DNA of 41,027 nucleotides, from contig JBBRXE010000002.1 in NCBI GenBank assembly GCA_038248695.1, forward strand, positions 1 through 41,027. Direction: 5' to 3'. Source of the stretch: Candidatus Limnocylindria bacterium. GTDB lineage: Bacteria > Chloroflexota > Limnocylindria > QHBO01. Every line of letters starts with the position of its first letter. Position 1 is the first letter of the stretch. Positions 1-1,089 of the stretch are shown here, piece by piece. A program made the position numbers and the translations under genes. Under the pieces are notes generated by a model. The model was not told where the DNA came from and did no database searches. It saw nothing but the letters and a program-made list of their open reading frames with translations.

Positions 1-760
1 AGTCGCCTCCTTCCGCGGGCGGCGCCTGCTCCGGCGCCGGCGTCTCCACCGACGCCTGGCCCTCGCCGCTGGGCGCCACTCCCGGCAGGTCCTCGGGGGC
101 CATGCCGGCCGCTGCGGCCACCACCTGGCGCAGGCTGCGCCAGTAGCGGTCGTAGTGGGCCGACAGACCGGCCATCGGATCCCGTCGTGAGCGCGACGCC
201 CACGCCCGGAACCCTCCACTGAACGGCAGCGGATGACGCCGGATGTCGGCGTTGAAGCGGCTTCCCCAGAACGCTCCGATCAGCCCGTCGATACGCTCGA
301 CCAGGCTGTCACCGCCCACGTGCACCGATCCGAGACAGACGATGCCGTCGTCGGAGGTGTTGGGCAGACAGCTGTGCTCGAGCGGATCGTCGAGCGATCG
401 CAGCGCGCTGCTGCGGAAGAAGGTGGCGAGGCTCTCGATGCGACCACCGCCGGTCGAGACCACGAAGACCACGTACGGCAGGCTGAGACGGTGCGTCACC
501 GGCTCACTGCCGTACCTGTTGCTGGCGTGGTACTCGATCTGGCGGCGCATCGGGAGTTGCTCGACCACGAACACCTCCCGCCCTTCGGGAGAACGGACCC
601 AGAAGCGGCAACCGGCGGGCAGCAGGCCGCTGATCGCCGAGCGCTGCTCGGCCAGCCGGCTCAGAAGATCGTCGAGCGCGACGTCGCGCTCGGCCACCTC
701 GGTCACCAGCGTGGCCAGGTCGCCTTCGATGCGCAGGTACTTGCGCGAATGCATGGACAT
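1..760 (-). CDS. E2/UBC-like ubiquitin-conjugating-type protein, partial (C-terminus runs off the left edge)
   Basis: Own minus-strand translation; this edge ORF is not in the track. ATG at 760-758 is preceded by GAGGAGGA (771-778), and the frame stays open to position 1. It contains LPNTSDDGIVCLGSV (Cys codon 337-335). This resembles the HPN-x(5-8)-G-x-(I/V)-C-L active-site signature of UBC-fold E2 enzymes. It lies 92 nt downstream of a ubiquitin-like gene. Confidence 0.5.
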   Translation of the reverse strand, partial: MSMHSRKYLRIEGDLATLVTEVAERDVALDDLLSRLAEQRSAISGLLPAGCRFWVRSPEGREVFVVEQLPMRRQIEYHASNRYGSEPVTHRLSLPYVVFVVSTGGGRIESLATFFRSSALRSLDDPLEHSCLPNTSDDGIVCLGSVHVGGDSLVERIDGLIGAFWGSRFNADIRRHPLPFSGGFRAWASRSRRDPMAGLSAHYDRYWRSLRQVVAAAAGMAPEDLPGVAPSGEGQASVETPAPEQAPPAEGGD

Positions 761-852
761 CGTTGAGTTCCTCCTCTAGCCTCTCAGGTGGGCAGCCCGA
801 TCACACCAACTGAGGTGTTGCTCGGACTGCCCGCTCATCGTTGGCTGCTGTC

Positions 853-1089
853 TCAGGCGGCGAGGCCCTTGACGCCAGCCGGCTTGAGGAAGTCGATCTC
901 GTCCCCGGAACGAACGATGTGGTCGTCGGCCACGATCTGGCCATTGACCCGCACCGTCGTCTCGCGCGGCAGATTGAGCACCTGCTCGAGCATCTTCCAG
1001 ATGCCGCGGATGCTCTTGCCGCCGAGGTCGAGGGATAGCTCGTTGACGCCGTACACGACCTTGACGGCCGTGTCCTCGTAGGTCTGCAC
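853..1089 (-). CDS. Small ubiquitin-like beta-grasp protein (ThiS/MoaD-like), 78 aa
   Basis: Sits inside track ORF 853..1149. The start is taken at GTG 1089-1087, behind AAGGAGAA; the same RBS+GTG cassette precedes the HTH gene. VQTYEDTAVKVVYGV...TTVRVNGQIVADDHIVRSGDEIDFLKPAGVKGLAA carries the ThiS-like motif 'V-NG-x-V ... GDEI'. It ends G-V-K-G followed by a 3-residue tail (LAA). Confidence 0.7.
   Translation of the reverse strand: MQTYEDTAVKVVYGVNELSLDLGGKSIRGIWKMLEQVLNLPRETTVRVNGQIVADDHIVRSGDEIDFLKPAGVKGLAA

Follow-up and report, generated by a model that had tools for sequence, protein, structure and literature searches.

What kind of system do two neighbouring genes, one for a ubiquitin-like protein (Ubl) and one for an E2-like protein, belong to at the end of a contig from a Candidatus Limnocylindria bacterium, and what could the mobile element around them use it for? 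We addressed this question with a stretch of 41,027 nt, hereafter called the window (JBBRXE010000002.1 of assembly GCA_038248695.1, positions 1-41,027, forward strand; G+C content 68.6%). A previous reading of the letters without database searches (hereafter, the sequence-only reading) had taken the two genes as part of a bacterial ubiquitin-like conjugation cassette. As described below, it is likely that they open a Ubl-conjugation operon, which encodes a Ubl precursor, an E2-like protein, a small helical protein, a peptidase of the JAB/JAMM type, an E1 of the ThiF type and, in most cases, an AAA_16 ATPase, and which is a conserved backbone module of integrative and conjugative elements (ICEs) in Chloroflexota. 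Bacterial Ubl conjugation is now known in cyclic oligonucleotide-based antiphage signalling systems (CBASS) and in the Bil and Bub systems. The PRTRC/Prok-E2_D branch, which was predicted in 2006 and is found on many conjugative elements, had no described function in the papers that we found. The cassette appears to be a streamlined relative, with five or six genes, of the PRTRC-type Ubl cassettes, and it is widespread in Chloroflexota conjugative elements.

The Ubl, the E2-like protein and the operon behind them

The first gene encodes a ThiS-like beta-grasp protein of 78 amino acids (aa), whose translation ends in FLKPAGVKGLAA, that is, in AGVKG followed by the tail LAA (coordinates of this and the other features are listed in Table 1). 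The best Pfam match of this protein was ThiS, with 27.9 bits over a gathering cut-off of 22.5, and a sequence search against the Protein Data Bank (PDB) returned only matches with E-values of at least 0.1. The identical 78-aa Ubl is present on 20 public contigs. Across related loci, AGVKG was invariant in the intact copies and was followed by 1-3 variable residues (LAA, QSI, HAR, R and others). This is the end expected of a precursor that is trimmed to its C-terminal Gly, a prediction strongly supported by these alignments.

The second gene encodes the E2-like protein, and 253 of its ~259 codons are in the window. The segment LPNTSDDGIVCLG corresponds to residues 132-144 and includes Cys142, the candidate catalytic residue, which is encoded at 337-335. 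Database relatives of the protein at E <= 1e-3 numbered 223, and a profile search of 1.84 billion representatives clustered at 50% identity gave 1,695 relatives at the same threshold. Cys142 was invariant in the 32 close homologues aligned (62-91% identity). In alignments of 57-63 sequences, which included relatives of 23-35% identity, the residues conserved in at least 90% were Pro48, Glu67, Pro70, Pro95, Asn134, Cys142, Trp165, Phe169 and Trp187. Precomputed matches to the Pfam family Prok-E2_D (PF14460) are listed for many of the close homologues, and the same family was matched by 26 of the 63 remote homologues, with 9e-13 as the best value. Prok-E2_D proteins are expected to have a catalytic-type Cys after a P-N motif, and this arrangement was found in the form of Asn134 and Cys142. 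Furthermore, hhalign placed the LPN..G.VC motif of the family on the HPN..G.IC motif of canonical E2s.

The fold was predicted with AlphaFold. A first model from a shallow alignment had a predicted local distance difference test score (pLDDT) of 59 and was too poor for use. The model from a deep alignment had a pLDDT of 88 and consisted of a helix, a six-strand beta-meander, the loop with the PN..C motif and then three helices, an order of elements that is compatible with an elaborated UBC core. The family profile gave no match in a sequence search of the PDB. We therefore speak of a predicted E2 on the grounds of its profile membership and active-site motif, rather than of a demonstrated fold. 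Note that many of the remote homologues (P0153-P0269) are longer, at 460-780 aa, and have the E2-like domain in their C-terminal half. One such fusion, P0164, stands in an operon (L066, 786-4681) of a 132-aa protein, the E2 fusion, a 286-aa protein, ThiF and a 77-aa protein, where the small and possibly Ubl-encoding gene comes last.

What follows the E2-like gene was examined in related contigs. In those that have the identical Ubl and are long enough (L002 and L003), the operon encodes the Ubl (78 aa), the E2-like protein (259 aa), a protein of 87 aa (p87), the JAB protein (279-282 aa), the ThiF protein (230-231 aa) and the AAA_16 protein (392-405 aa), and the E2, p87, JAB and ThiF genes overlap by 4-17 nt. 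A scan of one genome per species gave 58 loci, nearly all of them in Chloroflexota metagenome-assembled genomes (MAGs) and several per MAG. The operon order was kept in about 55 of these 58 loci, as well as in metagenome contigs that had been retrieved by an RNA motif alone. Between the E2 and JAB genes, nearly all loci have a diverged open reading frame (ORF) for a helical protein of ~85 aa. The 279-aa protein carries the E...HSHx7SxxD signature of JAMM/JAB peptidases, with Glu86 and HSHx7SxxD as the conserved residues, and it matched PRTRC_A (6e-11) and Prok-JAB; a sequence search of the PDB gave no match for it. The E1 candidate matched Pfam ThiF (3.8e-18), and PRTRC_ThiF (1e-13) was the best of the NCBIfam ThiF models. 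It keeps the nucleotide-binding motifs GxGGIGSQL, DGD, RQ and LLAVDNH and a single conserved Cys (G169-C170), and its nearest solved relative, the sole match in a sequence search of the PDB, was MoeB (1jw9, E=5e-4). The last protein matched AAA_16 at 1.3e-8.

In many of the related loci, the region 2-8 kb upstream of the cassette contains, on the same strand, genes for VirB4, a hydrolase, the coupling protein and the relaxase, and a tyrosine integrase gene often comes after the AAA_16 gene, about 3.8 kb past the E2 start. As judged from this gene order, the cassette is a backbone module of a Chloroflexota ICE family, between the relaxase and the integrase and close to the integrase end. Some MAGs contain three or four copies of the element (L013/L020/L036/L041, L016/L042/L045/L054 and L022/L033/L034). 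Several of these multi-copy elements, mostly in long-read MAGs, have fragmented genes, which could be pseudogenes or assembly errors.

The Ubl and E2-like genes are separated by a spacer of 92 nt (761-852, minus strand) that contains a stem-loop. The 106-nt stretch with this stem-loop (755-860) had a folding energy of -42.3 kcal/mol (z = -2.7), and a long GC hairpin was found in all of the 56 related Ubl-E2 spacers, the sequences of which are very different. Thus, the structure of the spacer is conserved and its sequence is not. The hairpin may adjust how much Ubl is made relative to the enzymes, as a partial terminator or a stabiliser, and with such a structure after its gene the Ubl would probably be more abundant than the enzymes.

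These results agree with most of what the sequence-only reading had said about the two genes. It had given a 78-aa ThiS-like protein ending in KPAGVKG-LAA, and an E2-like gene 92 nt downstream with its Cys at 337-335, and the coordinates and the translation were exact. The proposed processing to Gly by removal of a tail was borne out by the invariant AGVKG and by tails that vary in both sequence and length. The Cys, the conservation of which it had left to be checked, was kept even in distant homologues. It had also placed the E1 and peptidase genes beyond position 1, and JAB and ThiF genes do follow in the contigs with the identical Ubl; the Ubl-then-E2 order, which it had taken as the opening of a conjugation cassette, recurs in about 55 loci. 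For the UBC fold, which it had likewise left to be checked, a confident model was obtained and Foldseek found no confirming PDB match.

On the other hand, several points weigh against the assignment of the two genes to a Ubl-conjugation operon of ICEs. The window stops inside the E2 gene, and the JAB and E1 genes were seen only in close relatives, in which the Ubl is identical and the E2-like protein is 89-91% identical. The E2-like protein itself had 23.7 bits against Prok-E2_D, which is just below the gathering cut-off of 25. In the hhalign comparisons, first with one and then with three canonical E2 sequences, the alignment was limited to the active-site motif, with a probability of 17-25%; the comparison at 25% covered 24 columns around PN...C. 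Foldseek of the pLDDT-88 model against the PDB found nothing at E < 0.1, and Cap2 appeared at E ~0.9. No relaxase gene was in reach in about 15 loci for which 8 kb of sequence upstream was available. Finally, no target, E3 or conjugate was observed.

Known relatives and possible role of the operon

We compared the cassette with the known bacterial systems that include a Ubl. Iyer, Burroughs and Aravind (2006) described an operon type 6d with a small Ubl that has a C-terminal Gly, an E2-like protein that has a Cys without the canonical His, a JAB protein that carries an N-terminal domain and an E1 that lacks rhodanese, and they noted its mobility (PMC1779556). In our reading, type 6d corresponds to the ParB-related, ThiF-related cassette (PRTRC; NCBIfam TIGR03734-03742), which in the literature that we found is described only as a mobile-element-associated system with no function given. 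A tblastn search of plasmids with the E2-like protein found a Cupriavidus gene annotated as 'PRTRC system protein B' (27.7% identity, 77% coverage), the cassette of which has the order ParB-E-C(Ubl)-F-B(E2)-A(JAB)-ThiF. The two cassettes are thus collinear in their Ubl ... E2-JAB-ThiF core, and both are on conjugative elements. In both, the Ubl is small and its C-terminal Gly is conserved (AGAKG in PRTRC_C and AGVKG here), the E2-like protein has a conserved Cys and no His at the HPN position, the JAB protein is extended at its N-terminus, and the ThiF-type E1 is short and lacks rhodanese.

However, the distance between the two is large. The E2-like protein of the window had 19.9 bits (E=4e-4) against PRTRC_B (TIGR03737), and a full-length relative had 18.4, so that both missed the cut-off of 131.45. 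For close relatives, the JAB protein had 42.2 bits against PRTRC_A (cut-off 101.8) and the ThiF protein had 51.2 against PRTRC_ThiF (cut-off 144.75), each of which was the best NCBIfam match. The Ubl did not match PRTRC_C at E <= 1, and the ThiS and MoaD models matched instead, so that all proteins are far under the curated cut-offs and only the AG[AV]KG motif is common to the Ubls. A scan of ORFs in the window, L001-L003 and L011, which did not take in every small ORF, revealed no ParB and no PRTRC D, E or F protein, and p87 and AAA_16 showed no similarity to PRTRC E or F. The cassette here adds the ~85-aa helical protein between E2 and JAB, the AAA_16 ATPase and a structured leader of ~650 nt. 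Its Ubl has a 1-3-residue tail, whereas PRTRC_C ends in AGAKG without a tail, and its hosts are Chloroflexota, whereas those of PRTRC are Proteobacteria or Bacteroidota. Judged by its sequences and gene order, the cassette is a distant relative of PRTRC, which is the closest known system. The comparison with PRTRC and Prok-E2 in the sequence-only reading was apt, given the best profile matches and the collinear core.

How the proteins would act can be proposed from the chemistry of the E1, E2 and JAB families. The JAB peptidase would trim the 1-3-residue tail to expose Gly75, and the E1 would adenylate Gly75 and probably form a thioester on Cys170, its only conserved Cys. The Ubl would then be handed from the E1 to Cys142 of the E2-like protein and be attached to lysines of target proteins, which the JAB peptidase may also reverse. 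The Ubl precursor with its cleavable tail, the single conserved Cys of the E1, and Cys142 with Asn134 in the E2-like protein are handles for biochemical work on this scheme.

As for the role of such tagging, the cassette keeps a fixed place between the relaxase and integrase genes in dozens of elements, which suggests that it serves the biology of the element. PRTRC has a similar backbone position on ICEs and plasmids of Proteobacteria, and by analogy we favour a role in the transfer, establishment or maintenance of the element itself over one as exchangeable cargo.

The main functional rival is that the cassette is a defence or counter-defence system, either Bil-like, with tagging of a phage tail protein, or acting against defences on entry into a host, rather than a regulator of the life cycle of the element. 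This would be in line with what is known of other systems, since the characterised ones with bacterial Ubl conjugation (Type II CBASS as well as Bil) are all antiphage and Bub has been suggested to be so by its genomic context (PMC11601596, PMC10557695). In the cassette and around it, the attached AAA_16/STAND-like NTPase and other conflict genes near the cassette in the window (Type ISP restriction-modification, Phd/YefM and MazG-like genes) would also fit such a function. The fold of the E2-like protein is moreover common to four uncharacterised phage proteins, which were the matches of its model in BFVD (A0A7R7G2H5, A0A6J5MFC0, A0A6J5P0Y8 and A0A6J5NU73; E 2e-9 to 2e-5, TM 0.44-0.52). However, a scan of IMG/VR found no relatives, and PADLOC gave no matches for the Ubl, E2, p87, JAB or AAA_16 proteins and only weak, Rossmann-level matches for ThiF. 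In addition, the position of the cassette is fixed next to relaxase and integrase in dozens of diverged elements, whereas typical defence cargo is variably present. For these reasons, we regard a defence function as unlikely.

The comparison with the individual systems was in accordance with the PADLOC results. BilABCD resembles the cassette in that Ubl, E2, JAB and E1 are encoded by separate genes and in that thioester (Cys) chemistry is expected in both (PMC11601596). The Ubl here is, however, a single ThiS-like beta-grasp domain, and the cassette is in an ICE backbone instead of a defence island. The PADLOC Bil models had no match for the Ubl, E2 and JAB proteins, and BilD was matched only at E=3e-3. 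Bub (6E/DUF6527) likewise has an operon of Ubl, E1, E2 and peptidase, with a Ubl that is matured by the peptidase. Its E1 and E2 have no catalytic Cys and form Tyr/Ser oxyesters, and its protease is the serine protease DUF6527 (PMC11601596), whereas here Cys142 of the E2 and Cys170 of the E1 are conserved, the peptidase is a JAMM metalloprotease and no DUF6527 match was seen. In Type II CBASS, E1, E2 and JAB activities (Cap2/Cap3) are also together on mobile DNA, and the ThiF domain here weakly matched Cap2 models. Cap2, however, is a fused E1-E2 and its 'Ubl' is the CD-NTase, whereas the genes here are separate and come with no CD-NTase or effector. PADLOC supports neither Bil nor CBASS membership, and the cassette is not a known defence system. 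Therefore, the Bil and Bub systems, which the sequence-only reading had cited as examples, are analogies only, with Cys rather than Ser chemistry expected here.

The structured leader and its putative promoter

The window contains two copies of a structured region upstream of the Ubl gene, a full-length one (parts A and B) and a partial one (part B), with a helix-turn-helix (HTH) gene between them. As examined with nhmmer, the near-full copy covered model positions 10-740 at 2003-2755 and the partial copy model positions 296-740 at 1088-1558. The HTH protein had matches to Pfam HTH_23 and to sigma-70 region-4-like models, all of them below the cut-offs. Its gene is present in a minority of the related elements, with homologues at the equivalent place in L009, L058, L072, L089 and L108, and the leader is likewise duplicated in L009 and L058. 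A conserved leader precedes the Ubl gene in about 45 loci, and it always stops right at the ribosome-binding site of the gene that follows.

Structure in the leader was assessed by covariation. Of the 54 sources searched with a covariance model of domain 1 (2535-2659), 52 had one match each. In the alignment of this domain, 96% of the cells were paired and 14 of the 25 pairs had compensatory changes, and there were 106 doubly changed cells, whereas shuffles gave 29.9±3.9 and slid controls gave 9-15. The corresponding values for part B were 93.8% of the cells paired, compensatory changes in 9 of the 20 pairs and 48 doubly changed cells against 15.9±3.9. A part-B model from subgroup 2 alone recovered the leaders of subgroup 1 only weakly (E ~1e-3), so that the detailed fold of part B is provisional. 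Single-sequence folding of part B was not exceptional (z = -1.7). For the 3'-most domain of the leader, the MAFFT alignment was too poor for RNAalifold and nothing could be learnt from a crude scan of column pairs. In Rfam, none of the 4,227 covariance models matched at gathering scores in the whole window or at E <= 1 in positions 1000-2800. A small ORF in the leader (GGAGG-N-ATG) had also been considered as a conserved feature and was rejected, because the reading frame of the conserved nucleotides differs between the two subgroups of leaders.

The association of the leader with the operon was also seen in a search that took no account of proteins. When metagenome contigs were searched with a 26-nt motif of the leader, a Ubl gene, or an HTH gene followed by a Ubl gene, started 480-620 nt downstream in 29 of the 32 loci with enough sequence, and one further locus had an HTH match at +280. 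Since the motif loci precede the Ubl operon, the leader is taken to be a cis element specific to this operon.

A putative promoter/operator lies at the 5' end of the full-length copy. Its columns, namely the repeat pair, TTG.. and TA...T, were conserved in 30 aligned leaders, and the pair of GTACAC repeats occurs once in the window, where none would be expected by chance. A scan with the strict Escherichia coli sigma-70 consensus found no promoter, and the promoter is therefore called putative here. Transcription would start from this operator-bearing promoter and then pass through ~650 nt of structured RNA leader. The sequence-only reading had described a large structured leader before the Ubl gene, with which the covariation agrees, and also a promoter cassette shared with a conjugation operon. 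The latter did not hold, in that the duplication covers just the 3' two-thirds of the leader, the full copy precedes the HTH gene instead of the conjugation operon and the operator/promoter occurs once in the window.

The conserved region of ~700 nt could in principle act as DNA, namely as an origin of transfer (oriT) or as a single-strand promoter or initiation site on the transferred strand, and not as an RNA leader. In many elements the relaxase gene is upstream of this region, which is rich in hairpins, and a part of the region is duplicated ahead of two successive genes. Repeated single-strand promoters occur in the leading regions of plasmids, and the duplication of the leader resembles these. 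However, G·U was far commoner than A·C in the predicted pairs (139 vs 33), and RNAalifold energies were better on the sense strand than on the reverse complement in all five alignments, where structure in the template strand would show the opposite; these two results indicate RNA rather than the template DNA strand. The exact end at the ribosome-binding site and the conserved -35/-10 pair with upstream direct repeats at the 5' end of the region also speak against a role as DNA. On the wobble-pair asymmetry, the strand energies and the conserved upstream promoter, we rejected the oriT or single-strand DNA promoter as very unlikely.

The presence of an RNA leader dedicated to one operon suggests tight control over the expression of the tagging system. 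RNAs that are both large and structured are rare, and the leader is probably the most novel feature of the cassette. A more far-reaching picture, which we offer as speculation and think rather unlikely to hold as a whole, is that the leader is a new class of large structured regulatory RNA for this operon and that the Ubl cascade is a core life-cycle switch of widespread Chloroflexota conjugative elements. If it were true, the switch might, for example, tag proteins of the element or the host to license excision, transfer or establishment, and the orphan PRTRC-type systems would be given a function.

Genetic setting in the window

The conjugation operon of the window is on the minus strand at 12507-28210. 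It contains CpaF, TadB/C, CpaB and TadE-like genes of the Tad/Flp-pilus type together with genes for VirB4, the coupling protein, an M23/SLT hydrolase and a Replic_Relax relaxase. An exonuclease gene, a split Type ISP restriction-modification gene, a MazG-like gene and an IS256-family transposase gene lie between this operon and the Ubl cassette.

Another reading is a sulfur-carrier pathway of the ThiS/MoaD/CysO/QbsE type, with a Ubl thiocarboxylate as the product of the E1, maturation or release of the carrier by the JAB peptidase, and no protein conjugation. It would account for ThiS as the best Pfam match of the Ubl, for MoeB as the nearest solved relative of the E1 and for the peptidase, given that sulfur carriers such as QbsE have their C-terminal tails trimmed by JAMM peptidases, which can also free the product from CysO. 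However, it is highly improbable because the mature end would be Lys-Gly and not Gly-Gly, the 231-aa E1 has no rhodanese or extra domain, the neighbourhoods examined contain no sulfurtransferase or biosynthetic gene, the E2-like gene with its invariant Cys is translationally coupled to the JAB and E1 genes, and the site is on a conjugative element.

Table 1. Positions of the cassette, its leader and the main conjugation genes in the window
Feature	Position	Strand	Details
E2-like gene, Prok-E2_D/PRTRC_B-like	760-1	minus	ATG at 760 after GGAGGA; runs off the window at position 1
Stem-loop	790-832	minus	Inside the Ubl-E2 spacer
Ubl precursor gene	1089-853	minus	GTG start at 1089, 5 nt past AAGGAGAA; stop codon at 855-853
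Partial second leader copy, 3' two-thirds (part B)	1090-1558	minus	Extends up to the Ubl ribosome-binding site and start codon
HTH gene, 138 aa	2010-1594	minus	Separates the two leader copies; next gene upstream of the Ubl gene
Full-length structured 5' leader, parts A + B, ~650-690 nt	2011-2696	minus	Precedes the HTH gene
Putative promoter/operator	2697-2757	minus	Direct repeats GTACAC at 2757-2752 and 2745-2740; -35 TTGCTT at 2731-2726; 17-nt spacer; -10 TAGCGT at 2708-2703
Replic_Relax relaxase	12507-13595	minus
Coupling protein (T4CP)	13564-15759	minus
VirB4	16767-18974	minus

A transposase gene of the IS256/Mutator family (Pfam 5.5e-57) is on the plus strand at ~2760-4224, immediately upstream of the operator/promoter of the leader. 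The listed start of its ORF at 2740 overlaps the promoter, and its true start is therefore placed further inside. The C-terminal domain of a Type ISP restriction enzyme was matched by two overlapping plus-strand ORFs, 5969-8353 (profile positions 1-108) and 8308-9243 (profile positions 109-341), so that the gene at 5969-9243 appears to be broken by a frameshift.

Two repeats were also observed. A near-identical direct repeat of 45 nt is found at 12008-12044 and 37866-37902, 25.8 kb apart, where it flanks the conjugation operon. It ends in CCGACCA, like the 3' end of a tRNA, and may be a pair of attachment sites or its remnant. ARAGORN found no tRNA in this repeat, and no copy was present in any other locus fetched. 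A second repeat of 44 nt, with 80% identity between its copies at 9366-9409 and 10528-10571, contains CTCCTTC, which is GAAGGAG on the minus strand, and looks like a common ribosome-binding or leader segment ahead of two successive minus-strand genes near the exonuclease gene.

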